DNA of 60,000 nucleotides from Botryllus schlosseri (lineage: Eukaryota). The DNA lies in assembly GCA_051294905.1 (NCBI GenBank), contig CM119372.1:13518001-13578000 (forward strand). The letters are read 5' to 3'. Position 1 is the first letter of the stretch. Each line of letters starts with the position of its first letter. The position numbers and the translations under genes were made by a program. Shown piece by piece: positions 2,009 through 52,200 of this stretch. The notes beneath the pieces are model-generated. The model saw nothing but the letters and a program-made list of their open reading frames with translations. It did no database searches and was not told the DNA's origin.

Positions 2009-2968
2009 AATCGTCGGCATAGAGAGAATTTCATAAACTTGCATATAACCATAACCATAATGTCCTATATGGTGTCGACACCAGACATGGGGTAATCGCG
2101 ATTAGTAATCGTAATCGATTACGACGATTACAGCATTTTCAAGTAATCGTAATCGCAATCGATTACATTCGAAAAAAATCCAAAGTAATCGTAATCGTAA
2201 TCGACTACTTCATATATCTAATCGATTTCTTTGTGAGAGATCGATTACTTTTTATTTGTACAATGAATATGACATAACCGAACATTCGTGAACAAGGAAG
2301 AGATATTATTACAGGTTGTTGATAGCGCAAGTGGCTGATTTACAAACGCCACTGCTCATTATTACGTCAGAAGTAGGCTATTAGCTTTGCTCGTCCTTGC
2401 GTAAGAAGTATCCACACGTAGTAAATATATATTCGATGTACATTGTTTTGTGATTGTTAGAACAGTGTGAGCCATGCCGTATATCAAGTTATCAATAAAC
2501 ACCAGACGCCACTATACCTCGCCGCAAGATCATAATCGAATCACCACTCTGCCTAGTTTCAAATAGTAACTCATGTATTGCTGTTTGGTTATGCTTAGTT
2601 AAACGCAATTTGACCGTTTCTGCTTGGCGAGCAGTAGGCCTATCTATGTAGTATACGTATGTATTTTGTACGCACACCGGACAAAGATTTGAAATTTTAT
2701 ACTCGTCAAATAAAACATTACGATGGTTAAAATCAACAGCTGCTGATATATATCATAACCGAGACGTTCTTTGCCATTTCTCGTAACGGCAGCTTGCAGT
2801 ATCTGTATTAAGTGGAAGGTAGAATTTTAAGTTCACTTTATTTTATTCTCATATGACTCTACTTGAAACGGGCGCCAATCGTTATTTCACAATTCTTCAC
2901 TCGACATTTATACCTGTCGCCATGGCCATCCAGTTATACACCATGTTAGCGTGGGTTGTAGGTACAAT

Positions 2969-4135
2969 CAGGACCAAAACAGCAATTCGTCCTCAACTCC
3001 AAACGTTGGTATTGCTAGGGTTGTAACCTAGTCACAATGTCAATCTCACTTTTATAGTTTTGACTCGAGTCAAGTCAAGTCAAGTCATTTTCAATTCATC
3101 CCCGAGTCAAGTCCGAGTCCAGGTCCGCTAGCATAGGGTTGAGTCCGAGTCATAGTGTTTGACTCGAGTCCGAGTCCAAGTCGTTATGTTCACAGATCAG
3201 TTTTCAGGTCAATCCGCTTTAACCCCCTTTTTCCAACTCTTCTTGAGTGATATAGAATGACTCGTATTCATAATATAGTAATCTTCATCAGTTATCACAG
3301 GTTACGGCCCTATTTCCAAGTATCAGAACTGATAGACGAAATACAAATAATGTGGTAACTTTACTATTCTTCGAAGTTACATGGAATGTCTGTCTTGGCC
3401 GTTCTAGTCTCGAGTCATGCAAAATGAATCGAGTACATGTCGAGTCAATACAAAAAATTTACGCATTTAAAAATATGACTTGAGTCAAGTCTAGTCACCG
3501 AAAAATTGCGACTCGAGTCATTACAACCCTGGGTATTGGGGCCTCATAGGGTGTAAGTTTTCAAGTTGATGACTTAATTTCGTCAATGATATTGGTAATT
3601 GCATTATATTGCTATTCATTCAGATTTACCCGTAGAGCTGGGGCACCTAATTCATAACTATAGCATCTGGTATGTTGTTATAATTACTTTATTGTATGTT
3701 GTTAATTCGTGAGCTCCCGTCTTTTATATAATAAAAAGATACTGTAGTCGCCCAAACGTAGCAGATTAAAAAAAAAACTTTCGTGAGACGCACACACAAA
3801 TTCTTATGTATTCCCTCCTCTGTGGGTGGCATTTGCATTGTTGGGGCTCAGATTTGAAGGACCGGACTATTCGTCACGCCCACAGAACGCGGCCACTGAC
3901 ACCGAAATGCCTATTCCTATAAATTATGCATGCTTTGATGGGGAGAAGTATGCATTTCAAAATCAAGCTATTTAGAGACATTAAATCACGAAGCTCGAAG
4001 AAAATTTTCAATTTAATAAACTCTCTTGAAAATACTCTATAATAATTTATGTTGATTTACGAAATACTTTTGAGTCCCCTTGGAGCTCGCTTCCGGTCCT
4101 ATTGGGGAGTTTGGGGTGTTGCAGTTACGGACCTG
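2969..4135 (+). mobile_element. CAGGACC-family element nested in the 2.4-kb element
   Basis: Ends CAGGACCAAAACAG...GTTACGGACCTG, homologous to 22648-23285 and 28986-29954. TSD not recognisable. Confidence 0.65.
3016..3531 (+). mobile_element. (C/T)AGGGTTGTAA hAT MITE with GAGTC repeats, third nesting level
   Basis: TIR TAGGGTTGTAA / TTACAACCCTG. TSD GGTATTGC/GGTATTGG (perfect CCAATACC in the 40377 copy). Free paralog at 9837-10338. Confidence 0.85.
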
Positions 4136-4942
4136 GCAAGAATGCAAATCGTTGGGTGCGACGAATAGTCCTGCATCGAGTTGGGCAATGGGTACATTAT
4201 GACAAAACAAGCAAATGACGTATGATATGTAAAGAAAGTTGTTATCTCATTAGACCTTTTCATCGCAAGCCACATATTGTCTTCCAATATGTCTTCTGAA
4301 ATTAGTGCTTCAAGAAGGAAAACAAATGTAATCGTGAGTAATCGTGATTACATTTGAAATGTAATCGTAATCGTAATCGACTACTTCCTGATTTTGCTGT
4401 AATCGTAATCGTAATCGTAATCGTGGGATTCACAAGTAATCGTAATCGCAATCGATTACATTCATGAAGTAATCACCCCATGTCTGGTCGACACAAGCAA
4501 ATCTCACGGCTCAGTGAAATTGTATCACGTCACAATTTCCATTTGGCTACAGGCAGTTTGACGGTCATTTTTGATCGGCTTGCCGAGCATTCAATTTGGT
4601 AAAACGGGTATCAATCGAAAGCTGACTCTGAACTGATTACGAAAATATAAATTTTATTCTGCTCGCGGCCCTGGAACCCCCACAATCAGCCTCGAATTTT
4701 TCATTGTTATGGAGATTGGCATTGGGACGCAACAATGCTGTCCGCTCTTTTTCACTTGAGCTACTCTCTCGTTTCGCCAGACAGCATTGTTGCGTCCCAA
4801 TGCCAATCTCCATAACAATGAAAAATTCGAGGCTGATTGTGGGGGTTCCAGGGCCGCGAGCGGAATAAAATTTATATGATATAACTACATTGCATACAGC
4901 CAATTGGGACGTCATAGAAACAAAACAACATCATGTGCAGAC

Positions 4943-4981
4943 AAACCCCTGAAGAGTGTTGGCTCGAAAAGCTTCGGGTTT
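4943..4981 (+). ncRNA. Minimal type I hammerhead ribozyme motif
   Basis: AAACCC-CTGAAGA-GTGTTGGCTC-GAAA-AGCT-TC-GGGTTT: 6-bp stem I, conserved core, palindromic AGCT in place of stem III. Confidence 0.75.
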
Positions 4982-5559
4982 TAATAGACACTTACGTGAC
5001 CTTTGACACGAACCAATCAGGTTGCTCCAGGATGTAAACAAACATCAAGCTCGGGCAAGCTTACTATGAGCTCTTATGGAAAAGGGTTGAAAAATGAAGG
5101 TTTTTAGCAAAATTACATTGAATTGGGGATGGCTGGACCTGATGAATAGTAATAGCGCAGAGCTAGTATGTAGATGCAGCGTTTTAATCTAGAATGAACA
5201 ATTTGAACATGAATAGTGGCAAGTACGCATCAGCATGGTGTGTCCAAATGCATGGAGTTTTGACAACTTTTAGGATTAAGCAACGATTGATGTATACTAT
5301 ACTATCGGATTGTGGTTATGCATACTTGACGATTTCATAGGCTCAGGGCACGAGTAAAATCTCCAAGCATAATATCTCCTGTTCAGAAATATATGTTAGA
5401 AAAATATAGCCGCTGCCACACAGTACAATTTTGGTATATATTGATTGAAAGCTATGGATATTCTATCGGATTTGAGTGGGACAGTATTTTCTTCTAACAC
5501 CGCGGAGAAAGCTACGTACACGACTTAGGGATAAAGATTGAGGAGACAATCCACTCTTA

Positions 5560-5800
5560 TTGTGGAAGCAATATTCTAGTGAACAGCCAATGTTATCGCA
5601 GAAAAAACTTGCAGAAAAGTGAGATACCACACCTGATGGAAATATCTCGGAAAATCTAATATTGATTCGTCTTGCACTTGTAAGACAGGGTAAGTAAGGA
5701 AAAAGGCATTTCTTCAGAGACTCATGCAATAGATATTGTAACCATGGTTTTATTTTCAGATTAGGTTCTGATATGCTCTCATGCATATGCAGTTATGCAA
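5560..5800 (+). pseudogene. Relic of the second ISL2EU ORF (SWIM-type zinc-finger region)
   Basis: Translates as NILVNSQCYRRKNLQKSEIPH...IDSSCTCKTG, then a GT-AG intron (~5690-5759), then ICSHAYAVM (CxC...CxH). Frameshifted. Confidence 0.55.
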
Positions 5801-6096
5801 GGATCAAGACAATCCAACACCTGAAGCTACAAGGGCTGAAAGGCATACATTGTGATTTGCGTCAGCATCAGTGAGCTCGATCGTGATTGCCAAGCCATCT
5901 CTTGACCGTACTCGCAACCCATCAACTCCTGCCTCTAGGTAGATTTTGGTGTGTCTGGTGTCTTCGATTTTATAACATTACACCAAACACAAATAATCCT
6001 ACAACATCTGTACCTGGAGAACTGTTTATTCAACAAATTGGGCATCTAAATGAGATTCAATGCACACCACACCACTGGAATATAGTATGTATAGAC

Positions 6097-7470
6097 CAGT
6101 GTTGGGATGACTCGAGTCAGACTCGAGTCACCTTTTTCGCATGACTTGACTTGACTCGAGTCACTTTGCCAAAATGACTTGACTTGACTTGACTCGGCGT
6201 ATCAGAAATGTGGATTGACTCGTGACTCGGAGCAAAATTCACGAGTCAATTTCAAGTCATCAAGTAGCCTAATCGGTGTCGATAAAAATCACTTTATCTT
6301 GGATATGTTCGGATTGTTCGCGAAACGCTTGTGTAACCCCTGTGACTGAGAGCGACCAATCATTCAATAAGCGTGCATTTCACCGAACCTCGATTGTTCT
6401 TTCACAAATAGATTGACTGCAAACGAAGTGATCGAAGCTTAAAGCTTACGTTGTCGTAACTCCAGTGGTAAAGTAATAGAATAGCAAAATGTCTGTTCTT
6501 AACCAAACCGATTGTTTTATTGAAATTGAAGTCGAATATAGTTTATATAGTCCTCAACCATGGGCACAGGCTCGAATGGTATCATATCTATTTGTAAATG
6601 GGTAACGTATTGCATCTTATCAATTCGTTTCCCTATTCTCTATTTTGGCTGGTAACTATAAACTGAGGCTATGCAATTACGTAGTTTCACAGTTCTACGT
6701 ATATGTGAGCGATAAAGCGCCTTCTTGCGTGTATATTTAACTCTATATTCGTTCATCGGTTCGAAATCAATGACCAATGACCACTCAAACTGTATTTCAG
6801 ACAGCTAGCAAATTGCAGTGACGTAATCATTCCTCATACATACATCGAAAAGGCAACTTGACTTGAAATGTGACTTGACTAGGGCTGGGCACAATGATTC
6901 GAGTACTCGAATCTGAATCAAGTATTAATTCTAATGATTCGAGTCGAGTAGTAAAAGGTGATGTTTTCGAGTACTGAAATTGTACGCTCCATGTCAACAA
7001 GGGTGAATTTATCAACGAAAATTATGATTCGATACCATTTTTCACTCTGGAAACCTTAAAACTTCGATTGGTCATGTACCAGCTTACGTAACACGTATTG
7101 CAAAGCTACAAATTACCTTTACATGGTGTGCGACAGGCTTTATATTATTTATGGTAGGATAAAAGTTCATATTTGAATTTTGTCATTTTCCATACCGATG
7201 TGACGTCATAATAAGTGATACTCGATTACTCGACTCGAAGCAAAATACTCGATTCAGAATCGAATCACTCAGGTACTCGATTTTGCCCAGCCCTAGACTT
7301 GACTCGTGACTTGACTTGACTTGACTCGACTTGACTCGAGTCACCTCCAAAAATCGAGTGACTTGACCTGACTCGAGTCACCTTTGAAAATCGATTGACT
7401 TGACTTGACTCGAGTCAAAATGTGCAATGACTCGAAATGACTCGAAGGTAGTGACTTGATCCCAACACTG
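6097..7470 (+). mobile_element. CAGTGTTGGGAT hAT MITE with GACTT/GAGTC repeats
   Basis: TIR CAGTGTTGGGAT / ATCCCAACACTG. Perfect TSD GTATAGAC. Confidence 0.92.
6880..7295 (+). mobile_element. TAGGGCTGGGC hAT MITE nested in 6097-7470
   Basis: TIR TAGGGCTGGGCA / TGCCCAGCCCTA. Perfect TSD GACTTGAC. Paralogs at 12769-13286 and ~19790-20021. Confidence 0.92.
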
Positions 7471-7809
7471 GTATAGACATGCACTGTTGGCGCACACTGA
7501 CCATGGCACCATGCAATTAGGATCTGTAGCATGCTATTAGTCATTACGATATTCACAATGGAACTGAATTTGCACAAATGCTGAATATGTTGCGTCATTC
7601 ATTTCTAATCTTGAATTAGAGTAAGCAATTAGTCCATATTCGGTTAGTTGATAGACAATGCTGCATATTATGACACCGGACAAAATTTCACACTCCTTGA
7701 TTCTTCCGATCAGTTGTTTAATATGAATATGATGTCTCGTCATCTTTCTTGTTGCGGAACAGTTTGGCCCCGACATTTGACGATGTGCCAAATCATGTGC
7801 AGGAATATA

Positions 7810-9710
7810 AAATCTAGATTTAATTTCTTGATTTCAGGCTCAATTGCGAATCCCTTTTCTGCCATGATAGCATCTCTTAGTGCACCATAGCTCCATGTGA
7901 ATAGTTCTCGCCAGTGTTGTGATCAAGTCACTACCTTCGAGTCACAAGTCATTTCGAGTCATTGCACATTTTGACTCGAGTCAAGTCGAGCCACGAGTCA
8001 AGTCACACACACCAATGAACGAATACAGAGTTATACACACAAGAAGGCGCTGTGTCGCTCACGTATACGTAGAACTGCTAAACTACGTGATTGCATAGCC
8101 TCAGTTTATAGTTAACATCCAAAATAGAGAATAGAGAAATGAATTGATAAGATGCAATACATTACCCATTTACAAATTGATATGATACAATTCGAGCCTT
8201 CGTCAATGGTTAAGGACTATATAAACTAGCCTATATTCCAATCAATTTCAATAAAACAAGACATTTGGTTACGGTAAAAATGTAGAACAGAAATAGACAT
8301 TTTGCTATTAAATTACTTTACTACGGTATACTAGTTTACGACAACGTAAGCTGTAAGATTCGTTTGCGATAAAAATATATTTGTGAGAGAACAATGAAGG
8401 CTCAGTAAAACGCTCGATCATTGAATGGTTGGTCACTCTCACGGGTTGGTTGGTCACTCTCACCAGCGTTTCGTGAACAGTCCGAACATACAGTGTGCAA
8501 GATACAGTGGTTTTTATTGACACCGATTACTTGAGGACTTGAAATTGACTCATGAATTTTGCTCCGAGTCACTAGTCAATCCACATTTCTGACATGCCGA
8601 GTCAAGTCAAGTCATTTTAGCAAAGTGTCATGACTCGAGTCATACCAACACTGGTTCTCGCACAAAAGTTAGTACACCACAATCCATCAATCCTTTCAAA
8701 GTTGTATGTGATTTATAGACAAAGATATTGTGAGCACGGCGGGGTTTGTCTTCATCAGTTCAGTACAGTCAATAATCATTCTAGATTTGAGAATTCGCGA
8801 ATGGATGCAAATACTGCATTTTTAAGAACCACATCTCTACATAGCCAAATCGAAATTTAATGAAGCAGTTACATACGATTCACCTAATGGTTTAATACTA
8901 TGCTTACTACAATAATAGGAATTTGACGTCAGTAGGATAAGTCGGGCAATTCAGAAAGAATTTAATGTAGTCCAGTATAAAATTTCATCAGCTTCTCCAC
9001 ATCTTTTGACACTATGGTGCTCTGAGAGCTGAACTTCACCAGCAATAATTGTCCGTCAATTTGTAATTTTCCTGGAAGAGTTTCCTGTTTTGTGCTTCTA
9101 TACTTCTTCCAGAAATTTGATTTTCTTGCGTTTTATCCCTCGACTTCCTCTTTCTGCAGCGTCATAAAGGATATCCATCAAGCCTGCATAAAATATATAA
9201 TATGTTTATTTTACAGAGCAACAACACTGCTGTACAGGCACCCATCAAGGCGTGCTCGTGCGACTCATGTCGACCCCTACCAATGTCATCAACTATCCAT
9301 CTTATCATTGAATATATTGCTTTCAACAATTTCAATCCATTTTACACCATCAAGCAACAACACTGGAGCGGAATAATATGAGACACACACCAAGTCGATT
9401 GTGGCATCAACAACGAAAGCGGTGTGACTGCATATCAGTTTGGACTCATTGTTCTATCTACTAAATTATGTGACGATTCAATATTTTTGGTACAATAATA
9501 CATACGTCATTTTATCAATAAAATGAGAATTCAGATGACTATAAGGAAGTCCACATGCCTTTATCCAGATTTTACTTTCTTCCATGCATGTTATTGGCTC
9601 TGGGAAAGGTAGAAGCGCACACCAGGAACGTTCTGGGTAGCAATCTCCAAGTTTCACCCGTAGGTAGGCTATTAGCAGTTTAGCAGCTGTGTTTATCCGG
9701 CATTTATCCT
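7810..9710 (-). pseudogene. ISL2EU THAP + DDE_Tnp_4-like transposase relic
   Basis: Minus-strand motifs: THAP-like LPFPEP...WIKACG (~9550-9630), KFYTGL (~8970-8985), RMIIDCTEL (~8757-8783), YKSHTTLKGL, GVLTFVRELF, DAIMAEKGFAIE (~7840-7875). Contains stops, frameshifts and a MITE insertion. Confidence 0.8.
7912..8653 (-). mobile_element. CAGTGTTG hAT MITE, inverted shorter paralog of 6097-7470
   Basis: TIR CAGTGTTG / CAACACTG. Perfect TSD GTTCTCGC. Interrupts the transposase relic. Confidence 0.92.
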
Positions 9711-9836
9711 GATGGATTCAATACATGAGCTAGAACAAAAAATGGCAATTTCAGCTGTGGTCGGATCATGTTGCCTAACACATATATTATAGTAACATGT
9801 TGATTATAGAATATGCAGACAAGTGTCCAGTGTAAC

Positions 9837-17322: not shown

Positions 17323-18141
17323 CAGGGGTAGCCAACCTTTTTGCTATTCACGGCCGCATTTCGATTACCTAACGGCCGCGTTCCGGAACATAGCCGTATA
17401 ATGAACCAAGCGGACGCCAAACACCCATGTTAAACTGTCCATGTTTATTTCCAGTGAAATCCGGACTTTCTCATATCGGCTTACTATACGCACCGAAATG
17501 GCGAGTGGCCATGTTGTGAATAATTACTGAGATATGTTATGGATTTTTTTTTTTAGATTCAGAAATGAATTTCGTCATTACTATTGGTGGATTCTAATAG
17601 TGCCATCAAATATTTATCCTTTATCAGCCCATGTGATCAGATTCATTGGTGGATTTGATGGAGGTAGTGTCTTCGAAAATTTAGGGCGAAAGTTACACAT
17701 TATGATCCATCTTTGGGTGGACCAATTGTTATTATTAGTCACTTTGTTGCAAGATATTATTTCTTGTCCTCCCATCAGGATTGTCGGTAGGCTATATTGG
17801 AAATATAATGGAATCGGCTATAAGCCTAAACGTACCAGAAACAGATTTCAAGCATGGTCATTCTAAATGGGGCGTATCATTTTCCTCTGCTGTTCGCATC
17901 TGCACTGTGGGGCTCAGATTGCAAAGGGCGATACCATATTAAAATCGACAAATGAAGTGTAGCATTGAATCGCTCATAGCGCGGAGAAAATTTCAAGATG
18001 AATTAAATTCTCTCAAAAATTCGGGAGTCTATTCGTAAATTCAATTTGCCTGTTGACGGCCGCCAACGCATAGCCTACTAATTAAAGTACTAGTCACGGC
18101 CGCACAAATTTCCTTCTACGGCTGCAGGTTGCCCACCCCTG
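17323..18141. mobile_element. hAT (Charlie-like) non-autonomous element
   Basis: TIR CAGGGGTAGCCAACCT / AGGTTGCCCACCCCTG with GGCCGC subterminal motifs. TSD degenerate. Confidence 0.7.
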
Positions 18142-19786: not shown

Positions 19787-20021
19787 CCCACAGCATTGTC
19801 ACAAAGGTCGATGAAATAGGTAGGCCTATGATCGAAAAGATACCAAATTATCTTCAATGTGGTGTAAAATAGGCATTATTTGTGGTCGCAATCTTTCCAC
19901 ATCATTGCATACTGTTACTGCATACTGCGCATTACTGCATACTGAATACTCGACTCGAAGTCGACGAATAATAATCGATTCAGAATCGAATCACTCAGGT
20001 ACTCGATTTTGCCCGGCCCTA
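19787..20021 (+). mobile_element. 3' half of a TAGGGCTGGGC MITE
   Basis: Homologous to 13040-13286 and ends GCCCGGCCCTA. Confidence 0.7.
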
Positions 20022-24900: not shown

Positions 24901-27900
24901 TTGGACATGGACTTGAATATGAAAAAGTTATGGATTAGGATTTGGATTTGGATTTGAAGGTTCGGATTTGGATTGGATTAGGACATAGAAATTTCAAATC
25001 CGCTCATCTCTGATGTTTACCCATTGTTAGGTCACGCTTGACTACTTATAGTCGTTTTGGCCAGTCGTAGCAATTTACCGTATGTGAGATGCTATATAAC
25101 TAGGGTTACCTTATTTGGAGATCCAAAAAAGAGGACAATTATTAAACACTTTTAAAGCTGGAATACCAGAAAAGAATATGGTTAATTCAAAAAGTTTTTC
25201 AGTACCTGTGTTGATTACAAAAAAAAAAGGTCATCACTTTGCCCTGACCCCCGAATTACCCGCATTTTACATACGTGTGTGGTGTTGATTAAGAAATAAA
25301 AAGTGGTCATCAATGGTCAGCGGAGTTATTGCCGTCGAAAAATTTCGATTACCAATAAAATGGTATTTACGGTGACCAAAATCTTTAATTATTTATTATA
25401 GGTGTGCACACCGTAAATACTATTTCGTTCAAATCCAAATTTTTCGACGGCAATAACTCCGCTTCCATTTGTTGGAATTGAGCCAAATTTGGTGAACATC
25501 GTTTCCATAGACAACCTAACACTTTCATGGGGAGAACCGAAAATTTTGAAATTTTGGTTCATTTACTTTTATATAATAAATAGAAACTTTCTTTTCCCGT
25601 AGCAACGCGGCTACTGGCTGGAATTGAATCAAATTTGGTGTGTAGGCTTAAATTAGGTAACCTAACAATTTTATTAAGTAGCCAGTACAGTTTGAGAAAA
25701 AAGGTCTTTTTTGAAGACCCCTACTGCGCACACCTATATATACATAACTCGAATTCGTAGGCCTATATGTGACCCCGTGTTTTCTGCTCACTGAATTGTA
25801 ACGCTACGTTCAATTTGTGAAATGAGTTAGTGGCAAACGGCGGGAGAACGTACCAATTCAATTGAAAAATATTTACACTAATCTTGCTCTGTGGGCGCTG
25901 CTAAAATGTGGGACACCGCAACAATGATTTTGACCATAATATTTTCTAAATCATGTCGCAATGCTGCGCTATGATTTTTCCCTCACTATTTTGTATTGTT
26001 AGAATTCATCATGAATTTTTGAATGGAACGCAAGACGCAAAAATTGGCCAGTGAAATTCCACAGCAGATTACAATATAAAATAATATGAGTGTATAAAAT
26101 GGACTATTTTGTAGGACGAAGTTAACCAGATTATGATGACAAATTTATGGCTGAAGCAAAAATGGTATGACCACAAACTTCAGTGGGATCCGAAACTTTA
26201 TTCAGGTGTTGAACATATTCGGATCCCATCAAAGAAAATATGGACACCTGACATAGTGTTGTACAACACGTAAGAGCACGTGTACCTAATTGCGCGAATG
26301 CATCCGTTCTCCACAACTGCTTCTACTTTTATCAGGGCTGTCGGTAAATTTCAAGTCGGCCAAAGCACAAAAGCGTTACTTCGTTACACTGGCGATGTTG
26401 TATGGACACCACCCGCCATTTTCAAAAGTTCTTGCAGCATCGATGTCACCTACTTTCCATTTGATGACCAGGTATTGATGTAGGCCTATGTTTGATCTAC
26501 CACGGCATGAAAAGGGCAGTCTGGTCCGATTTCTGACTTCCAACGAAAGTACCAACGGATGGACATCGATAAAATGATGAAGAGCGAATAAAATGGCATA
26601 CGCATACTCATACGTATACGCAATTAGGTCACATTAACAATTTTATAGCAAACTTCGATGGAATGTTTGGTGATTTCCCACCAATTTACTTTCTATCTTG
26701 CGAGCCTCCTGGATAATTTCCTGAATACTTTTGCTAAATCTCCCGTCAATGATATTTATGAAACGAATAATAATAAGCATTGATGAGGCAATGCAATCAA
26801 ATCTGCCACCAACGAAAGTACACATATGTCGCCCAAACAGCTATTTCTGAAGTACAATATGACTAGCAACCAAGAAGAAGCATGCACCGTGTATGTTCCC
26901 TACTATCTGGACATTGCATCTTACATAACAAACGAAATATGCACTTGATTGCTATTCTAATCTGACGTTGAAGTTGATAGGTCGCTCATAGCTTTGTCGT
27001 GTAATGCGATTACAATCTAGAATTGCACGATGAAGTTTGGGTCATGGACATATGATAAGGCAAGGGTTGACATGCGGATTCAAGGGGAGGGCTTTGCTAA
27101 AAATGAGTATTGGGAAAGCGGAGAATGGACTGTGCTCAAAGTCCGTGGTCAAAGGTGAGTCGAAATTTGTTTACATTACAATTCTATTATTAGGAATTCC
27201 ATCGAAAAGCCTTCAAGAAGTCTGTCAATCAAATATAGGAATTAAAAAGAAGACAAATGATAACAAGAGGCACACTGAATGAGAAATACAGAAATATAGT
27301 AAATTAAGGTTACCATATTTTGGGAATCTGAAAAGAGGACACTTTTTAAAAATTTCCAAACTCACAGTATCGGAGTAAAATCCGAAAACATTGGTAAATT
27401 TATTGCGAATTTGTAGTTGGTTGACAAAAAATGGTCAACTTTTTGCCTCAACTCCCTAAAGACCCGTTGGAGTGTTACTTGAGTACTGATTTAATGTATC
27501 TCATTTTAATTTTATCATATATATTCAGCCATAATTTTCAAAAAAGAAGACAAATCCTCTTAAAAGAGGACGTATATATGGAATCCCTAACTAAAATGTG
27601 CAATTAATGAGAATGAAAGGACATGTTATTTTCGCGTGAGTTATAGACGAAGTCGACATACCAAACTTCTCAAAGCACAGGATATTGCTATTATATTATT
27701 ATATTCTTTATTCACTGTAAAACAATAACAATTGTTATTATTATTAATATTACGAAAGTAGCGCTTTCAGCCGATGACGTTTTTTTCGCGCCATGCTCGG
27801 GATAGATCGCAATAAAGCGACCAGAAAATGAATTTTATAGAAACAGTTCGCAGCCGAGCTCTCAATAACTGAGCTATCATTGTTCATGTGTTGGTATGTA

Positions 27901-30900
27901 ATTATACTTTGTTTTTCAGAAATGAAAGAAAGTACAATTGCTGTCCAGAAATTTATCCCGACATCACGTACTCTTTCGAAATTCGACGACTCCCTTTATT
28001 TTACACTATCAATCTCATCGTGCCGTGTTCCTTGATATCATTTCTCACGATCATGGTATTCCTCCTTCCGTGTGATAGCGGAGAAAAAATCACTCTAAGT
28101 ATATCAGTTCTTTTGTCGCTGACGGTGAGAATATACTTCTGATGGTGATGACGCAGGTAACATATAAGGAGCGTTCAAATTCCAGGTCTTCTTACTGGTT
28201 ATAACGGAGATAATTCCGTCTACGTCGCTCGTTGTGCCCCTTATCGGGAAATACCTTCTGTTTACGATGTTCTTCGTTACGCTCTCGATCGCCGCCACCG
28301 TCTACGTTTTGAATGTTCATCATCGATCACTTGATACTCATGTCATGTCGAGCTGTACCAGGAAAATTTTCTTGGAAATCTTGCCTAAGGTATAAGGTTG
28401 TTTATATGATATGATTTCAGCAAAACGATATATATCTTTGTCATATGTGCGTTAATAACGAAGATTCTGTGCATGCCCAAACCCCCGGTTTCTATCAAGA
28501 CGCATCTCGCGGATGTTGAAATGACCGCGGAATGTGTCTCAAGCTTGGATGAATATACTGATCCATATGAGGTACGCTATGACTTGAGATTCATGTATCC
28601 TATAGTATTGCGATGTACACAAAATTCAAAAGGAGTTAAAAACAAAGTAGAATTATATTTTCCGAGTAGCGAAATGGGTCGAATTACTGACTCGAGCTGT
28701 ATTTCAAATTCTACATACGATAACTTTAGTAACTTGTTACTTTTCTGTGATATTCAAACAGCGAACTAAACTATCAAGATGCCATTAATCATTATTTCAA
28801 GCATTGAAATTTATATATATATATATACAATGTATCAAAATAGAATTTGGATAATAGCAAACGAATATGTGTAGAGCATTACTTCGCGGAGATGTATCGT
28901 GTGATGATGAAAGGTGACAGAAGCTATTGAGTATCAAAATACTTCTACTGCTTTTACAAAATATCATCAATACATACTCCTGACCCAGGACCGAAACAGC
29001 ACTTCGTCAGACCCCCACAAAACGTTGGTCTTGGGCCCTCCATAGGGTTATAAACCAAACTTATAGGGGCTATCGCTACTTGTCAGCGATAGTTGGTGTA
29101 CCGTTTAGTTGTTCAGCTTATGTCGCCTATATGCGCCAAACGCGGAAATTTTCTATAATTCATGATTGAATCGATCAATGTGATCGGGAATTGCATATAT
29201 ATGGCTAATTTGCTATCAATTTTTTTAACCTCTGTTCCCGTAATCAGATTTACTGGTTGAGCTGAATAAGGTGTCTTGGAAAATGTAGGGCCCGTAAATA
29301 ATAATTGAACATATTCGGGCGGACCCGTTGCTATAATCACTTTATTACATGATGTTCTTTCGTCCCCTGTCTGCTATGTCAAAAGATATTGAAATCGCCC
29401 AAACGTACTAAACTAAATGACGCGCGCGATTTCAAATTGGTATTTCTTCACTGGCAAATATTTTTTCTGCGAAATGGCATTTGTCATTTGGGGTTCTGAT
29501 TGCTAGGACATGAAAATTTGGCGTCAGCCGTTTAGGCGCCAATAGACAATCAAACATATACGTATTATGTATAGCCTATATATCGAAGTTTTCGGTCAGC
29601 ATGAGGGCAGTTCTATTCGGCTGTTTTCTCGCAGACGATCGTTCTGGCCCACTCATCGGAGTGGCATCTTACATGGCCTAAAACTTCATATGTCTTGGTG
29701 CGTCCTGGAATTGTAATGGCTGACGCCGAAATCCCATTTCTATAAGTCATGCGTATTTTTTGGGGGGAGGGGTACCCAATAATCAAGACATTTGGCAACA
29801 CTAAATCGCGCCTAGCGCGAAAGAAAATGGAAGAAGTTGCATAAATTTTCAAAAAATACTTTATAATTTAGGTTAATTCAGAAAGTAATTTTGAGCCCCC
29901 TTCGAGCTCCCCCCCCCCAGTTGGGGGGTTTGGGGTGCGACAGTGACGGTCCGGCTCTGAGCATCTGTGTGCTTTAAAGCTGTACAAAGCTGTACCTGTA
30001 TACTTCCCAAGCGCCTCTTGTACAAAATCTGTATGAGTATAAGAAGAAAAAACATATGCTCATATCGCATTCCGTGTAAACGTGCTATATAAATGGTATG
30101 CCTATGAAGCCCAACAATCCAACATGTATATTGTATATCCTTATCATGCTAAGTCAATTTGTTGCAATTTCACAAATTATGCTACTTACGAGATCGTGCC
30201 GATGGATGCCTTTATATAGTTTCATCGTTAGGCCTACCGTTAGCGTGTTTCGCACATAATTTTATCAGAACCTCACCCACAATTCTCGATATGACAAGAA
30301 AGAGGATCTGTTCTCACAACTGAATGCGATGGGCTCCCCCAGTCCAGAAGAAAACTTTTCAACATTGTCTCGGAAATTATCCGCTGCTCTTCCGGGAGTG
30401 TCCTCTGTCGCACGGCAGCTACAAGAGAAAAATTTACATGATGAGGTAAAGTCGCATTTCCACCATTATGTATTAGAGACAAGCTGGGAATCACAGATAT
30501 TCTAAGATTTTATTTCCGCTATCATGTGGCCGCATCCACCTGCTGGCAATGTCACCTGAATTCGTCCGTAGTTTCTAGACAACATGTCAGTTAGTTCTAC
30601 AATTCAAGCCTAAATTTATTGTTATACTATCACAATACTCCATCGGTCTATCAACGTTAGCAAGGGATTGAAATGAGATCTCAAGAGTCGATTTGGTCGC
30701 AATGATAATTCTACGCACCCTAAGAAATTATTACTGAATTGACACAATATTTTATTATTATTTTATTGGCTTGTAGGAGGGATATTCGGCAACATCCGAC
30801 TGGTACCACTGGGGTTGCATCGTCTAACTCTAACACATCATGTTTAAATGCCATGTCAGTTGACAAAGATTATTTTCAAAAGTTGCATTATTCTGGCATA

Positions 30901-32590: not shown

Positions 32591-34994
32591 CAGACATGGG
32601 GTAATCGCGATTAGTAATCGTAATCGATTACGACGATTACAGCATTTTCAAGGAATCGTAATCGCAATCGATTACATTCGAAAAAAATCCAAAGTAATCG
32701 TAATCGTAATCGACTACTTCATATATCTAATCGATTTCTTTGTGAGAGATCGATTACTTTTTATTTGTACAATGAATATGACATAACCGAACATTCGTGA
32801 ACAAGGAAGAGATATTATTACAGGTTGTTGATAGCGCAAGTGGCTGATTTACAAACGCCACTGCTCATTATTACGTCAGAAGTAGGCTATTAGCTTTGCT
32901 CGTCCTTGCGTAAGAAGTATCCACACGTAGTAAATATATATTCGATGTACATTGTTTTGTGATTGTTAGAACAGTGTGAGCCATGCCGTATATCAAGTTA
33001 TCAATAAACACCAGACGCCACTATACCTCGCCGCAAGATCATAATCGAATCACCACTCTGCCTAGTTTCAAATAGTAACTCATGTATTGCTGTTTGGTTA
33101 TGCTTAGTTAAACGCAATTTGACCGTTTCTGCTTGGCGAGCAGTAGGCCTATCTATGTAGTATACGTATGTATTTTGTACGCACACCGGACAAAGATTTG
33201 AAATTTTATACTCGTCAAATAAAACATTACGATGGTTAAAATCAACAGCTGCTGATATATATCATAACCGAGACGTTCTTTGCCATTTCTCGTAACGGCA
33301 GCTTGCAGTATCTGTATTAAGTGGAAGGTAGAATTTTAAGTTCACTTTATTTTATTCTCATATGACTCTACTTGAAACGGGCGCCAATCGTTATTTCACA
33401 ATTCTTCACTCGACATTTATACCTGTCGCCATGGCCATCCAGTTATACACCATGTTAGCGTGGGTTGTAGGTACAATCAGGACCAAAACAGCAATTCGTC
33501 CTCAACTCCAAACGTTGGTATTGCTAGGGTTGTAACCTAGTCACAATGTCAATCTCACTTTTATAGTTTTGACTCGAGTCAAGTCAAGTCAAGTCATTTT
33601 CAATTCATCCCCGAGTCAAGTCCGAGTCCAGGTCCGCTAGCATAGGGTTGAGTCCGAGTCATAGTGTTTGACTCGAGTCCGAGTCCAAGTCGTTATGTTC
33701 ACAGATCAGTTTTCAGGTCAATCCGCTTTAACCCCCTTTTTCCAACTCTTCTTGAGTGATATAGAATGACTCGTATTCATAATATAGTAATCTTCATCAG
33801 TTATCACAGGTTACGGCCCTATTTCCAAGTATCAGAACTGATAGACGAAATACAAATAATGTGGTAACTTTACTATTCTTCGAAGTTACATGGAATGTCT
33901 GTCTTGGCCGTTCTAGTCTCGAGTCATGCAAAATGAATCGAGTACATGTCGAGTCAATACAAAAAATTTACGCATTTAAAAATATGACTTGAGTCAAGTC
34001 TAGTCACCGAAAAATTGCGACTCGAGTCATTACAACCCTGGGTATTGGGGCCTCATAGGGTGTAAGTTTTCAAGTTGATGACTTAATTTCGTCAATGATA
34101 TTGGTAATTGCATTATATTGCTATTCATTCAGATTTACCCGTAGAGCTGGGGCACCTAATTCATAACTATAGCATCTGGTATGTTGTTATAATTACTTTA
34201 TTGTATGTTGTTAATTCGTGAGCTCCCGTCTTTTATATAATAAAAAGATACTGTAGTCGCCCAAACGTAGCAGATTAAAAAAAAACTTTCGTGAGACGCA
34301 CACACAAATTCTTATGTATTCCCTCCTCTGTGGGTGGCATTTGCATTGTTGGGGCTCAGATTTGAAGGACCGGACTATTCGTCACGCCCACAGAACGCGG
34401 CCACTGACACCGAAATGCCTATTCCTATAAATTATGCATGCTTTGATGGGGAGAAGTATGCATTTCAAAATCAAGCTATTTAGAGACATTAAATCACGAA
34501 GCTCGAAGAAAATTTTCAATTTAATAAACTCTCTTGAAAATACTCTATAATAATTTATGTTGATTTACGAAATACTTTTGAGTCCCCTTGGAGCTCGCTT
34601 CCGGTCCTATTGGGGAGTTTGGGGTGTTGCAGTTACGGACCTGGCAAGAATGCAAATCGTTGGGTGCGACGAATAGTCCTGCATCGAGTTGGGCAATGGG
34701 TACATTATGACAAAACAAGCAAATGACGTATGATATGTAAAGAAAGTTGTTATCTCATTAGACCTTTTCATCGCAAGCCACATATTGTCTTCCAATATGT
34801 CTTCTGAAATTAGTGCTTCAAGAAGGAAAACAAATGTAATCGTGAGTAATCGTGATTACATTTGAAATGTAATCGTAATCGTAATCGACTACTTCCTGAT
34901 TTTGCTGTAATCGTAATCGTAATCGTAATCGTGGGATTCACAAGTAATCGTAATCGCAATCGATTACATTCATGAAGTAATCACCCCATGTCTG
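32591..34994 (+). mobile_element. 2.4-kb composite hAT element, copy 2
   Basis: Near-identical to 2082-4486, with its own perfect TSD CTATAGAT. Confidence 0.95.
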
Positions 34995-36726: not shown

Positions 36727-37990
36727 CAGAGGTGGTAAAAGTAGTCAAGAAATCTACTCAAGTAGAAGTAGCTACGAAAATATCTACTCAAGTACGAGTA
36801 GAAGTACTTCTTCCATGAGCACCGTAAACCTACTTGAAGTAGAAGTAGAATTGACTGACTTTAAAAGTACTCAAGTAAGTAAGTAGTTATGAAAACGATC
36901 CTAATTCGTTCACATGGATTGTAAAAAGGTGCAAATTGAGCTATGCGATAGGTGACGAGCTTGATTCATATTGATGCATACTAGCAGGTATCCAATTTTC
37001 GATAGCATAAGTAGGCTATTCGTCCGCATCATGGGATGAAAATGATGCTAATCCTCTGTTTTCTCGAACAGCACGTTCAGAAAATAGCATGGTATGGCGC
37101 CATTCCCCATATTATAAGGCCCGTAGTTTAGTCGAAGAGCAACACGGAGATGTTGTATAGGATACGGTGCAAACACTTTGCGCGATTAGTAAACGTTAAT
37201 AAAAAATATGGTGGACCGTAAAAATGCCATATTGTGCAGATTTATTTCCAGAAATTAAAGGCATTACTACACTTGCTTTTATACTTCAACGTGTTATCCA
37301 GACAAAAGAACTGATAATAATTATAACTCAAAGTATATGATACTGGGAATTGAAAGTGAAGTATAAATACTACTTCTAAAAGCAGAACATGTATTTCATG
37401 TTTTTCGTCCAGAAAGGTTCAAAGGTGGTATGCTAAAACAGCTCTAAAACTAAAAAAAAGTCAGAGTCCACTTTTCCAGATTTGGACACGCCATGGACAT
37501 GCTAGATTACGATATGACACGTAAATGCTAGATTGCGAAACAGCAGTTTCAAACGTTATGACGAGCCATATATACTGAGACGAATTATTTGACATGGACG
37601 GAGGGCGACAATGTGGTATGAACGGAACCACGCCAACCCTCCACCTAAATTATATTCACCGATAATTTCGTGAAATCATACTGGTCACTCCGTATCCAGC
37701 ACTGCGCGCGAAGCGCGACGAAAATTCTGGGATTTACTGAACTTTTATGAAAATTTAATGATGATATTCCGTGAAAACAGCCCCGAAATTCCTCAGGCTA
37801 TCTTCCTGATTGGAAGATTGAACTACTTCTACTTGACAAACTGAAAATAGCGAAAAGTAAGTAAGTAGATCACAAAATATTAGAAGTAGAAGTAGCGAAA
37901 ATCAGATCTACTTGAGTAAGTACCAGAAGTAGAGGAAAGCTACTTGAGTACTTCGAAAAAGTAGAAGTACTTCGTTACTGACCACCTCTG
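36727..37990 (+). mobile_element. CAGAGGTGG hAT element with (AAGTAG)n repeats
   Basis: TIR CAGAGGTGGT / ACCACCTCTG. Perfect TSD GGTATGGC. Confidence 0.92.
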
Positions 37991-43089: not shown

Positions 43090-43200
43090 TCATTCTGGCG
43101 CCTTCTGCTTGGAATGAGCATCATCGCTATCCGATAGCGTTATCTTATCCAAGCTTTCCTGGTCATATTTGTGGTGGACGTTGGATAGATCTGTGCTTCC
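43090..43200 (-). CDS. FERM gene last coding exon
   Basis: ctag acceptor, GSTDLSNVHHKY...QKAPE*, phase 0. Confidence 0.7.
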   Translation of the reverse strand, partial: GSTDLSNVHHKYDQESLDKITLSDSDDAHSKQKAPE

Positions 43201-46200: not shown

Positions 46201-49200
46201 CCGTTCTTTTTCTTCGGGACGTTCTTGGAGTGTGTCTCCTACCTGCTCGTATCCGCGATCATCCGGTGTTTCCAATGCTGCTGTGAATGCCGCGTCTGCT
46301 TGGACAGGAGAGGTTAGTGATTCGATTGCGGGATTCGTCACTTTTGGTCGGGTATCTTCAGAATTTGTGACTTCGGTGTTGCTAGGATTTGATTCCGATC
46401 CTCCTGAAGGCATCTCTTGAACGACACGATCTTGGACGCTTTTCGGTTTGCGAAGACTTCCAACTCTGGTCTGTGAATATACGGAATAAATGTAGAAACA
46501 GATTCAAAGGGACGAGTTCGATCTATGCGGATATTACAAGTGTTCAATCACCCACATATTTAGGTTTCAACGGTACGGCGAGAATATTCCAGCTAAATAC
46601 CTACCACATTTGGAGGAGGACGCTGTATGCTTTCACTTTCTTCTTTCACGTCGGTCTCCGTTTTTGGACTTTTCTTCTTAGAACTGAGCCTGCGTAGAAT
46701 GGAGCCCTTCCTCCTGTACGAAAAATTTGATTGTCATCTCTTGCTAAACACGAGCTTTGATCGATAGGCTTATACATGAAAAGAACTCCTTATGTAGCTG
46801 ATGATCCAGGATACAACAGCTGCTACAGAAAATTTCAGCCGCGAGTCGCCAAGGCAGCCAGACCAAAAAAGGAGTGAAAACATGAGGTATCGCCACTATA
46901 AGTGTCACAGGGTGCAGTGTAAATAACTACTACATACCAACAACGTGTATTGTATATCAACGAGTGTATAGGGTCAAGTCACCGGTCAAGTCATTAAGTC
47001 ATTTCAAATAATCATGTTCCACGGAAACGGTAGGCCTACTCGTTGAATAAATTTATACATTGTTATAATGATATTATATTACCAGCTAAGGCTGGGTTGG
47101 GCAAACTACGTCCCGCAACAACATTTTGTGCGGCCCTCGAAAGCCCGGAGAAGCGTTATGAAATTGTTGAAAGTATTAGAAGTAAAATTCGAATGAATCC
47201 CACGACTAGTATAACCAAGACAATGCAAACGATCTAAAAATCCAACCTCTACAGTACACCCAACTGCTATTGTGGACGGCTATACCTTGTCCTGGATATT
47301 GTCATTTTTGACCACACCGCGTTACTCTTAAAAATTACACGATTCATCGATATTACGTAGATTATGGTTACCATATATTGGAATCGGGAAAGGAGGACAC
47401 CTTTTCAAAATTTTCTTACTCAGAATCTCGGAGGTAAATCTTGAAAAATGGTTTTTCCCACTTCGCGATCGGTTGACTAAAAAAGGTCATCTTTCCGGCT
47501 CAGCTATCGAAATAGCCACCGGATCGTTACTTCAGTGATGATTTACTGTATCTCAGTCGAATTTGGCATCATATTTAACCAAGATCATCAAAAAAGAGGA
47601 CAAACTCTCAAAAAGGAGGACATTTAGGCGTCCTCGGAGGACATTTTCAAAAACCTGAAAAAGGAGGACAAATCTTCCTAAAGGAGGACGTATGGGTAGT
47701 CTTAACGTAGATGGGATCGCAGGTGAAATTGCGGAAGAAGTGCAAGCTGAAAGGACTATATCCAGAAAACATGAGATGTACTCGAATTCCCGCGTTTTGA
47801 TTGGGGATTCGTTCCGAACGCCTTAATTATTTTTTGGACCGATCCGGGAGAGCCCCCGACCCGAATTCCTAGTCTGAGTCTTAAATTTTCGTACCCAAGT
47901 CCACTTCCCAGCTACCTGAATGGTCGAAACAAAAACAAACAAAAACGCGATCGCTGGTATGGTACAGTGTAAGAAACTTTTTGATGAACTTACTTTTTCC
48001 GCTTATCGGAATCTTTATCCCCAACGCGGTAAAATATATGATGGCCTACGGCATTCTTCCACATGAGTTGAACCTGGTCCTGTGAACCAAATATAAATGA
48101 CTTCTTTAACCTCGGATCCCCATTTGGTGGTGCCTTTAGAAGTTTTATCTTGAATTTATTATTTTTGTGAACAATGTTTTTTATCCGAGACCAGGTGTGT
48201 AGAACAGGGATTTGACCTTTGCGATTTTCAACTACGCCCTTCGAGGATATTCCAATCAAAATATCGCTTCCCGACTTTTCCTTGCCGGCGTAAAAGTGCA
48301 CGCCGTAAAGTCTCAGAGAAGCGGCAGTTAAGAGAAATTCTCTTTCCGCATCAGCACTCGACAGACCATCATTGATTTGGCATAATGACAAAACGCGATC
48401 TACGAATTCGGGATTTGATACTTCGTTGTGGATCTTCGCAATATCCATCACGCAAAGTTTTACAGTTTCCACGGAAATATCTGATCGGTCGCACTCTGAC
48501 TTCTGCCAATATGCGATCAGACTGGCAAGTTTGTCGACTGAGCATTCCAAATGCACACCTAGATCTTGACGAATCTGTAGACATATTTGATATCTGTCGA
48601 GACAAAATACACGTGAATCAACAAGCTGCTACTAACTGGCTGGCTTTCGGGAAACATTTCCTACCATGGTGACACCACGCATGAAGTCAATTGACAAAGT
48701 ATTGAAGGTAGACACTATCGTGATACAACATAGAGAACTTATATCCACAAATGATGCTGTGTGCTCTCATATATAAATTTTTTCATGACAGGGGGTGCAC
48801 TTACAACGAACAAGAGGTTTTGTGATCACTGATCAGGATAAGTTAATCACATATCAATATCAGAGACTTATCATATCGCGAAATGCAATTTGTTTAATGT
48901 GTAGGCCACGCTCGGGAGGGAATTGAGCATATGGGCGCAGGGATAGGAGTTGTAGATCAAGGATTTATAGAATATATATCGTTGATATGATTCGTTGCTA
49001 TTTCAATATTAAATGCTCATTGTTCACTGCTGCTACTGTGAAGTATGTGATTGTGAGGAAACAAAACAATGATTTGGCGAGCCGGCGGGTTTATAATCAC
49101 AACGATGTAGCCTACTGTGGAGCAATGTTCCCTCTAAGCTGCGCACGTGCGCAAATGCGCAGTGCTGAGACTGTCTCTGCGCACAGAAAATCTATGTTGC

Positions 49201-52200
49201 GCACAAAAAAGCCAAAGTGATGACCATTTTTTAGTTGTTACGCACTGTTGTCCAAGGGTCAGCGCAGAGAGTTGGTGAGTGTGCGCAGATTCGTCAAAAA
49301 TAAGAAGGAACATTGCTATGGAGCCGTCTCACAATGGGGGTTCTTTGTCGAAATTTTATCTTAACCTATTTTGAATGAATCTATTCCAATTATCGACCAA
49401 TTCCAAGAAGGATAAAACTTCTATCCCCTCACTGCTAAGCGTCAGTGTGTCAGTCCAAGACCGTGGCAAACAGATCAACCGACGGCACAATTAGTGGTTT
49501 ACACGCAGTAGGCCTACGCCACTCGGCCGAAGAGTTTGATATGAAGAGCTCCTTAGAGTTGTTTCATGATGTTCTAAAATAAGGGTATCGTAGACCATGG
49601 TATACGATCACCATTGATTACGAATCACTTATTCTACAGTCTATAATGGGTGAAATTTGTCCTTCATGGCAACAGTAAACCCGATGGGAAATCAATTTGA
49701 CGTCGATTGCAATTGCGCACAAGTGTGGATGAAACCCGTGCAGTTTACAGTACCGTAGCTAGGAGGGTGAAAACCACGACTTGGGTACATATGGTCACAT
49801 TCCATCTCCGTGAATCTGCGACATAACGTCATTATTGAAAAAATTCACCTCTAGAATATCTGTCATGGCTAATTGGCTATGCCTACGACGTGTGTGGGAT
49901 GCTGAATGCCGTGAATACTCGCGGTTATATTCGTCATCAAATATTTTTCCATTCCGAGTTAACCTTTGAATTGATAGCCCCGGCTGCATGTATATTATGT
50001 AGATACTTCATTCCGACTAGCATACTACGAATAGTTGACAGACGCTATCCATAGGTTCATGTTACTGGTGTATCTAGCTATTGGATAATACCGATCACAT
50101 AAAGACAATAAGCCCTCCAAGCGATACAATAGCATAAAACTAGACTAGGACCAAGGAATTTACAGATAGCTTATACTTTGTTATGCATTGATTGATTGAA
50201 TAGGGAAGTTATGATACTGTTGGTTTGGAAAGAGTAACAAACGCTGCCCAGTGCCCATTGAGGACAATTGGACGATCGTCGAGCACATTTCAGCACATAC
50301 CTAGTGATTTCTTCTTTCACTAGTGCGGGATCGCTTGGGTAAAATTTCACTGCGAGTCTGAAATCCAGTTTCTCTTTCCTGAGAAGAATAAATCAGGATG
50401 GTTATGCTACAGTTTTATAAAATATATTGATCACAGAACCACGGTGCCATCATGAAGCTTGTGTATGACGCAAAATCAGTTGATGTGACTTAGCCTGTAT
50501 ACTATATCCTGTAAACGTAACCAACTATACGTGATGACACAGTTTATGTAGTTCTTACCTTAACAGGTGTACACGAAATTAAGTTACGTATTGGAATCTT
50601 CAAATAACCACCTACTATTTAGGTTAGGATAACTATATATATCCATACTATTTAATGTCCTAAATACATGCAATAGACATTGTTTTGAAAATCATATTCC
50701 ATTTCGATTACAGCGAAGTCAGTATTTTATAGTTTCTTTATCGTAGTTTTACCATATTTTGGAAATGTGAAAAGAGGACACTTTTTCAAAATTTCAGAGT
50801 TACAATACTGGAGTGAAATCCGGAAAAAGCGGTAAATTTTTCCCGACTTTGTAGTCGCTTGACTAAAAAAGGTCATTTTTTCGACTCAAAGTCCGAATTT
50901 CCGGTTTTCTATGAGTTTTTTCGTAGGTTGACTAAAGAAAGGTCAACTTTCCGACTCAACTCCCGAAATAGGCTACCCGTCAGAACATTACTTCAGTACT
51001 GACTTCCTATATCTCAGTCGAATTTTCACCTATATTTAACCCGAATTTTCAAAAAAGAGGACAAATTCTCAAAAAAGAGGACATTTCGGCGTCCTCCGAG
51101 GACACTTTCAAAAAAGTCAAAAAAGAGGACAAATCCTCTTAAAAGGGGACGTAGGCTATGGTAATCCTACTTTATCGATGTCACATATTCCGAATGACGT
51201 TCGGAGTAAATTGACGATTTTCATATCATTAATGACGTGATTAATATAAATTGGAATTTATTAATATTTACTATTATTCTCTGCAAAATATATGCATTCA
51301 TAGTTAAATTTACGGCTGCATTTAAAACAATAATCTATTTAAAACAAATATGATTAAAACAAGGCCCTTGTTTAAAACATGTTTTTTTTAACCCGTGATG
51401 TCACAAATATTCAATTGGGACGTTATAGTCGATTGACACTGACAATTGAAAATATAGGGCAACTATATCTGCTTTGACGAAATAGGTTTCCAGCCCCAGT
51501 CATATATACGGACCGAGAATATTCTTAACCAGGACTACATCGTTATGCAGCATTTTTACGGTCGGCGGTCATCATCATCAGAACATTCCTTTTGAACCAA
51601 TGATCTATATCTACGTAATATAGCTGTTGAGCAGACTATTTCGAGGGTTCCAACCATTCCATATCGTGTACGTCGGCTATATCGGGTGTAAATCGTCCGT
51701 AGGCTCATACAACATGTTTTTTGTAAAGTATTTAGATAATTGTGGAATAATTATAGAACTTGAAAAAAATTTAAAAGTGCCTTTGTTTTGAATGCAACCC
51801 AGTTACAGTATTGTGGTGAAGTATTCGTGAACAAATTTGACGCTATAATTCTACCGTTATTTTTCAAGGCCAATATTCTAAGTGGAAGCAATGTATAAAT
51901 GATGTGATTGATTGTGAATAATCGTAATCAGCACCTTTTCTTGTCATCGTATCATGTGATAGTATGACCTTGAAAACTGAACATTTTATAATGTGAATTC
52001 GGCTCGTGTAGGCGTAAGATCGCCGGGTGGGGATGATCATGGATTGACTTAAAATTAAGTAGTTGAGGTTTTCGATCCTTCAACACAAGGACACTTGCGG
52101 CATCGAGTGAATCCATCGCCGACTTTAAAATAGGCCTTCAATAATTCGGAAGTTCAGAAATCAGCGGCACACATGCAAAATACAGTCTAATGACCGTCTA

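Follow-up and report, generated by a model that had tools for sequence, protein, structure and literature searches.

Short stereotyped insertions at TA sites of the Botryllus schlosseri genome: probable two-ended excision scars of resident pogo elements

Insertions at TA sites in the window

We analysed a stretch of 60,000 nucleotides from Botryllus schlosseri (assembly GCA_051294905.1, contig CM119372.1, positions 13518001-13578000 of the forward strand; hereafter the window), part of a 495-Mb genome. It is rich in three short words, TAGGCTA, TAGCCTA and TAGGCCTA, that most likely are scars left at TA sites by excised DNA transposons of the pogo group. The window holds 11 TAGGCTA, 7 TAGCCTA and 12 TAGGCCTA, 30 words in all. 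Against second- to third-order Markov backgrounds, TAGGCTA and TAGCCTA together are enriched (18 observed, 4.35-5.5 expected, P<=2e-5), as is TAGGCCTA (12 observed, 0.44-0.69 expected, P~1e-11), and both excesses stay significant once duplicate copies are collapsed. Paralog states were scored against 1.79 Mb of genomic DNA of the same genome: the paralogs are mostly empty for 8 of the 30 words, share the word for 7 (among them 24310, common to its paralogs) and are unclear for 3, while 12 words have no paralog. The individual sites are listed in Table 1.

The initial annotation of the window had pointed to 5-bp insertions at 2374, 6265, 8227 and 51152, all of which align at these coordinates as 5-bp gaps against the paralogs that it named; a fifth site, 37012-37018, which it called probable, is confirmed against paralogs. 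Among the positions it gave for TAGGCCTA, 30228 should read 30229. The enrichment check that it proposed gave the values above and a like excess in 1 Mb of the genome (see below), and its remark that the window lacks an intact donor agrees with our finding that 8 donor-type elements gave no BLAST match there.

Several of the words travel with a 2.4-kb non-autonomous element whose ends and 8-bp target-site duplication (TSD) suggest a hAT-type transposon. The words at 2374 and 32883 count as a single event because both ride in this element, in two copies that are 99.9% identical. Four copies lie within about 90 kb on the window's contig (C2) and one on C6, 99-100% identical (2082-4486, 32591-34994 and loci L003, L004 and L005), and this clustering and identity suggest that local hopping of the element was recent. 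At the genome-wide homologues of 51152, 2 TAGGCTATGGT and 2 TAGCCTATGGT were found among 21 matches.

Table 1. Scar words of the window and the host element that carries some of them (paralog counts from the 1.79-Mb comparison)
Feature	Position	Remarks
2.4-kb non-autonomous host element, hAT-type by its ends and TSD	2082..4486	ends CAGACATGGGG, 8-bp TSD GTCGACAC; carries words 2374 and 2635
Second host-element copy	32591..34994	99.9% identical; own 8-bp TSD CTATAGAT
TAGGCTA scar (+5)	2374..2380	inside the hAT-type host element; 29 empty and 31 full-length paralogs (27 TAGCCTA)
TAGGCCTA, possibly old scar	2635..2642, 33144-33151, 42372-42379	inherited from host-element master; 20 paralogs carry the word
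TAGCCTA scar	6265..6271	13 empty, 0 full
TAGCCTA scar	8227..8233	8 of 9 paralogs without insert; adjacent 1-bp indel, hence scripted call "unclear", in effect empty-majority
TAGGCTA scar	17788..17794	3 empty, 0 full
TAGCCTA scar	18071..18077	8 empty, 0 full
TAGGCCTA scar (+6)	19821..19828	8 empty, 0 full
TAGGCCTA in unique DNA	25758..25765	public sample S1 has it in both haplotypes; no paralog to polarise
TAGGCCTA in unique DNA	26481..26488	in both haplotypes of S1; no paralog to polarise
TAGCCTA, probable scar	29572..29578	7 empty, 4 same-length; alignment ambiguous
TAGGCCTA without paralog	30229..30236	likewise without paralog: 43262, 49509
TAGGCTA scar	32883..32889	copied along with host element; same event as 2374
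TAGGCTA scar	37012..37018	10 empty (8 CA, 2 TA), 1 full
TAGGCCTA	47031..47038	between two minus-strand exon-like open reading frames; two differing S1 contigs span it gap-free; no paralog to polarise
TAGGCTA scar	50969..50975	17 empty, 0 full
TAGGCTA scar	51152..51158	within end of a hAT-type element; 10 empty, 1 TAGCCTA

Abundance and polarity across the genome

The same words are in excess genome-wide. A 1-Mb sample from 12 contigs holds 300 TAGGCTA/TAGCCTA, of which 77 are expected under an order-3 and 123 under an order-4 Markov model (3.9-fold at order 3), and 80 TAGGCCTA, with 9 and 15 expected, respectively (8.6-fold at order 3); they rank top among the TA-n3-TA and TA-n4-TA words. Since their flanks fall into 266 distinct clusters for the 300 7-mers and 78 for the 80 TAGGCCTA sites, the excess is not due to a few amplified repeats. 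Extrapolated, it amounts to about 1.2-1.5 x 10^5 words in the genome, or about 240-290 per Mb.

The long form is usually a derived insertion at TA, and it constitutes a real class genome-wide, as the initial annotation had proposed. In all-against-all alignments of repeat copies, the change from TA to TAG(G/C)CTA ranks first among the 5-bp indels (34 of 272, the next class counting 7), and TAGGCCTA second among the 6-bp ones (8 of 317). Mostly empty paralogs were found at 52 of 138 word sites versus 3 of 140 sites of control words (P=3e-15), so that the long form is not ancestral as a rule; only full-length paralogs were seen at 48 of the 138, where the word is inherited or due to chance. The insert is constant over 25 left and 29 right flanking 3-mers, and in none of the 52 polarised sites does it copy the adjacent three bases. 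TAGGCTA and TAGCCTA forms stand at 23:18 in polarised sites, and 8-bp duplications flank 2 of 318 sites in one count and 0 of 92 in another. Parallel derived insertions of the words TACCGTA/TACGGTA (6 of 37) and TACCGGTA (1 of 20) also occur and are rarer than the G/C scar words. Long stop-free stretches contain 5 of 410 scar words, compared to 12 of 403 control words. As to base composition, CpG observed/expected is about 1.0 in 20 scattered 10-kb stretches of the 1-Mb sample, without CpG depletion.

Empty, filled and scarred alleles of the same sites

Individual TA sites were found in three states: empty, filled by an element that ends in GGGG, and scarred (TA-GGC-TA, TA-GCC-TA or TA-GGCC-TA). 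Three scar-bearing repeat sites (A, B and C) yielded 7 filled alleles, all starting with GGGG and none with GGC. Site A is the homologue of position 2374. It is filled at one locus, L191, by a complete 948-bp GGGGAGATGTGG element with the TA duplicated, while TAGCCTA marks a subfamily of greater age, being present in 95 of the first 100 matches out of 289. In a tree built after masking the site, the TAGGCTA copy of the window falls within a group of empty copies, separated from the TAGCCTA subfamily (support 0.997) and from L191. This makes three independent events at one TA, on a tree that omitted 5 short or unrelated loci and whose empty copies were sampled with a bias toward window-like ones.

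The alleles of sites B and C were tallied by eye. The 43 site B alleles that start with TAG(G/C) comprise 16 TAGGCTA, 9 TAGCCTA, 7 TAGGCCTA, 1 filled and 10 others; the filled allele (L282, 1343 bp) has the ends of the transposase family of L165, L166 and L168. The first 100 of 150 site C alleles comprise 41 TAGGCTA, 34 TAGCCTA, 7 TAGGCCTA, 5 filled by GGGGAGA elements and 13 others, next to 1542 empty alleles. Of these five filled alleles, three include the host flank as well as both ends, a fourth consists of two elements in tandem, and the fifth shows no far end in the stretch examined. The odd alleles that were examined (7 at each of the two sites) turned out to be mutated scars, deletions, chance contexts, the re-insertion of a GGGG element into a scar (L303), an unexplained junction (L284) and the scar of L305. 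The last reads TA-GG-CCCC-TA, as expected of a CCCC tip but not of a GCC one.

Some further arrangements were seen at these and related sites. At position 317 of L284, TA is followed by GGAGACGTC without host flank or partner end. L288, L300, L303, L297 and G000:C1:15883855 present a double scar (TAGGCTAGGCTA), a scar within a donor miniature inverted-repeat transposable element (MITE), re-insertions into scars and a donor tandem sharing a TA. Tandem arrays at G000:C1 18.71-18.86 Mb and 36.99-37.01 Mb, whose periods are about 1.9, 2.9 and 4.1 kb, contain the site C repeat.

Resident pogo elements with GG(G) tips

Intact DD35D pogo transposases of probable Fot-like type, within elements that end in GG(G), exist in the genome; the ORF that belongs to the L166-type element is intact and 616 aa long. 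The DDE_1 profile gave 72 genome matches, and ends were scanned at 49 of 50 loci. Loci with both ends read TA|GGGTAGAG, TA|GGGGAGAC, TA|GGGGAGAG or TA|CCGT, and one family is CAGT-ended; among the 36 TA-flanked inverted-repeat rows listed for the 49 loci none starts with GGC. The elements combine a DDE_1 transposase, short terminal inverted repeats (TIRs) and a TA TSD. The DD35D spacing (35 residues counted in L166) is ungapped across 5 aligned proteins. HTH_psq scores 20.1 bits in L166 (cut-off 20.4) and passes in the CCG-ended L173, HTH_Tnp_Tc5 scores 22.2 in L263 (cut-off 22.2), and L182 has no DNA-binding HTH match; BrkDBD and CENP-B_N found no match in the donor transposases examined. Judged by domains and spacing, these predicted proteins probably fit the Fot/Fot-like description of PMC7386202.

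The donor families look young, their copies being 92-99.8% identical within families, and the scar at 2374 is later than the young subfamily of its host. The pattern for two GGGGAGA(T/C) families alone is matched by 1,992 ends, with a filter that passes about three quarters. Donor insertions lie in the context A-n-A-n-R|TA|Y-n-T-n-T, with the TA duplicated. Their target preference matches that of the scar flanks: 92 GG-ended termini show G.57/A.32 at -1, A.47 at -3 and A.38 at -5, and 52 polarised scars show G.49/A.35, A.53 and A.48, respectively.

Other possible donors were considered and set aside. A genome search with DDE_3 for a Tc1-type donor scored 24 candidates without a match. The 151 DDE_Tnp_4 matches of PHIS type showed no TA|GGC ends at the 30 loci examined, where many elements overrun the locus and ends were often unseen; membership in ISL2EU/PHIS does not fit the TSD, which is TA here versus AT or 3 bp in those groups (PMC4482050). 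Inverted-repeat pairs starting with GGC in 1.06 Mb were TAG-ended and read as hAT-type, or were chance pairs of scars. Very young PHIS/Harbinger-type families with DDE_Tnp_4 occur in their own right at L134-L139 and L153-L160, with up to 99.97% identity over 3.5 kb.

Origin of the scars and alternative explanations

The words most likely are excision scars of the resident pogo elements (Fot-like, DD35D) with GG(G)...(C)CC tips and of their non-coding derivatives, a reading to which we assign a probability of about 0.85 from the sequence comparisons above. Excision footprints as such are textbook knowledge (PMC2874221, PMC6943129), and at these sites a derived insertion with a duplicated TA goes together with a TA-duplicating element of the same target preference. 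The initial annotation's reading of the words as footprints of a TA-targeting element is thus supported as the best one, the filled alleles at the same sites being the reason. Its GGC...GCC termini did not hold up against filled alleles that all start with GGGG, inverted-repeat rows none of which starts with GGC, and the CCCC of L305. The donors end in GGG(G)/(C)CCC and the remnants are GGC, GCC and GGCC, so that the scars are likely two-ended and not the remnant of one tip.

The cuts of ITm transposases lie 2-3 nt within the element ends (PMC2170065), and excision leaves 3' overhangs on the donor (PMC2170065, PMC6943129). A transposase cutting 2 nt inside each tip would leave both donor ends with a 3'-GG overhang, and two such overhangs could not pair. 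End-joining would then fill across the gap. If both template G's were copied, GG+CC (+6) would result; if one base were copied, with a terminal G:G mispair, the heteroduplex would resolve to GG+C or G+CC (+5) in about equal numbers. The near 1:1 ratio of TAGGCTA to TAGCCTA at site C and in polarised sites fits such one-base fill-in. This step would resemble the skip-ahead of Pol mu, which is specialised for joining non-complementary ends and, in a gap of 2 nt, passes over the first template base in favour of the second (PMC5622330); that the animal uses a Pol-mu-type enzyme is our inference. In the germ line, most insertions would subsequently be excised without repair from a template, which would be why scars outnumber elements more than tenfold, and host repeats may have multiplied some scars further. 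The CCG-ended pogo family, which is less common, fits the parallel words TACCGTA/TACGGTA and TACCGGTA, for which both cut models predict the same products. Taken as a whole, the proposal that GG-ended Fot-like pogo elements are cut 2 nt inside their tips, that fill-in of Pol-mu type is nearly always the way in which the germ line repairs the GG/GG break, and that the resulting ca. 10^5 two-ended scars record both the jumps and the chemistry of end-joining in the germ line and are the main stereotyped 5-6-bp indel, strikes us as having even chances.

The words might also come from the same GG(G) donors by a GGG overhang of 3 nt that is trimmed before joining, or by a polymerase other than of Pol-mu type. 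We count this variant within the reading just given and regard it as possible though clearly the lesser option: cuts of ITm transposases do span 2-3 nt (PMC2170065, as above) and a few longer junctions do occur (TAGGCCCTA, 2 events; TAGGCCCCTA), but TAGGGCTA does not rise above background (11 versus 15), TAGGGTA/TACCCTA are absent from the enriched words and from the indel events, and the dominant products never exceed 2+2. An element with true GGC...GCC tips, hidden or extinct and cut with a 3-nt overhang as in Sleeping Beauty, would explain all three words by canonical chemistry (PMC6943129, again in part), GGCC arising via annealed GC tips; if extinct it need not be visible, and the DNA compared is about 0.4% of the genome. 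We nevertheless hold it to be unlikely in view of the GGGG-ended fillers, the CCCC in L305 and the Tc1-type search that gave no match. Moreover, the odd alleles that start with GGC or GCC (L283, L285, L302, L303 and L307) are mutated scars, flank deletions or a re-inserted GGGG element, no TA-flanked GGC element appears in the nested insertions listed for 1.06 Mb or with five genome-wide site patterns, those repeat families seen to start with TAGGC have TAG ends and read as hAT-type, and the five TAGGCGCCTA words reduce to 4 copies of one repeat context and 1 other site.

Deletion between TA microhomologies from an ancestral long form, local templated insertion, and the collapse of hAT elements with TAGG...CCTA ends together are very improbable. 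TAGGG-ended elements with 8-bp duplications are indeed abundant, and the 48 sites with full-length paralogs only would suit this explanation; the polarisation and the lack of 8-bp duplications largely refute it, and the constant insert, its independence of the flank and the nested position of the long allele of the window within empty copies speak against it as well. Chance or an assembly artefact has a negligible share. Chance alone would yield 77 of the 300 7-mers, about a quarter, and any single unpolarised 7-mer may be one of these, but the excess with its distinct flank clusters tells against it for the class, and three individual words of the window are confirmed in contigs of public runs.

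A number of observations weigh against the derivation from resident pogo elements. That a site has filled as well as scarred alleles demonstrates a shared target and not descent, no excision event was seen, and the hot spots could also serve another TA-targeting element. No filled allele was met at 6265, where the pattern tried gave 1 unrelated match and may not fit the family consensus, nor at 51152, among its 21 matches. In the reverse test, 18 of 38 filled elements had paralogs across the site, and only L191 had scarred ones in the DNA compared. The autonomous partner of the commonest filler, the 948-962-bp GGGGAGATGTGG element, was not found, and this filler has only its first 7 bp in common with the autonomous families that were. 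With regard to the cut, a 3-nt GGG overhang minus one base yields the same words, and TAGGGCCTA/TAGGCCCTA are mildly raised (8 versus 3.6; 2 indel events). Finally, none of the three words in unique DNA (25758, 26481 and 47031) is polymorphic between the divergent haplotypes of S1, a sample from a single study that possibly is the source of the assembly; present-day activity is therefore not supported. Repeats swamped the same check at 43262, 49108 and 49509.

Relation to known systems

Footprints themselves are known; for the genome scale and the two-ended make-up of the scars the literature searched gave no counterpart. The likeness to Sleeping Beauty, with its TACAGTA/TACTGTA (PMC6943129), lies in a remnant between two TAs, a net gain of 5 bp, two near-equal mirror forms and the position at TA duplications. 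There, however, the scar consists of the three outermost nucleotides of either end of the element and is the product of an assay, whereas here the donors end in GGG/CCC, so that GGC, GCC and GGCC need both tips, and the record is natural and genome-wide. Fot and Fot-like pogo elements share with the donors DDE_1, DD35D, TIRs below 40 bp, the TA TSD and a length of 2.5-2.9 kb; their HTH_psq/HTH_Tnp_Tc5 motif has matches around the cut-off in some of the donors. The Fot-like table of PMC7386202 includes TIRs starting with GG in red-algal and oomycete members (GGGGG, GGGTA, GGGAA). Those members duplicate TAA or TAAA, unlike the TA found here (30 Fot-like rows of supplement 3, none animal). Neither GGGGAGA nor GGGTAGAG stands in the TIR columns among the matches listed from the supplement, and the main text, so far as available, does not contain the word "footprint". 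Passer (pogo, DD35D) leaves short footprints of 0-4 bp at TA sites; it differs by BrkDBD/HTH_Tnp_Tc5 and by CCGTA ends in the rows compared, and the accessible part of its description reports no genome-wide load (PMC9976928). In Arabidopsis, natural empty sites of the MITE Emigrant (Emigrant/Lemi1, pogo-like) with extra TIR-derived bases were likewise read as excision footprints, in two cases among ecotypes versus about 10^5 here (PMC1636448, part of the text). We found no report of these words as footprints, of two-ended pogo scars or of such a load in a literature search that left subscription papers and figures largely outside its coverage.

Other features of the window and genome

A 2.7-kb element at 54206-56934 has inverted arms of about 100 bp, a 7-bp TSD (GTTACTG) and a piece of an open reading frame (ORF) with a THAP domain at 54798-55451; from these features we take it to be P/Galileo-like. 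On the plus strand, a stop-free ORF of 345 codons at 11152-12186 matches Sulfotransfer_2 and apparently is one coding exon. On the minus strand, an acidic ORF of 979 codons without a Pfam match (43567-46503) lies downstream of a FERM_M/FERM_C exon (47993-48628), and the two probably are parts of one FERM-domain gene. Elsewhere in the genome, L032, L039 and G000:C11 at about 14,036,000-14,042,000 hold members of one family of fold-back inverted repeats, nearly perfect and 4-6 kb long.

Implications

Transposon activity is usually counted from surviving copies. Here the excess of scars per Mb exceeds the counted donor ends tens of times, and if our reading is true the surviving elements are outnumbered 15- to 100-fold, which would place past cut-and-paste transposition far above copy number. 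The scars would also be a major source of small insertions that break the frame or carry a stop. As GG tips exclude confusion with the remnant of a single end, the scar words would allow the cut position of a pogo transposase to be predicted from sequence alone, together with the outcome of germ-line end-joining at overhangs that cannot pair; donor termini read straight off a footprint can mislead. Non-coding DNA rich in TAGGCTA and TAGGCCTA is known from some fish, and all three words are reportedly present in a paper on the 3' untranslated region of trout RAG. If the reading is true, the same process may explain such DNA in other aquatic animals.

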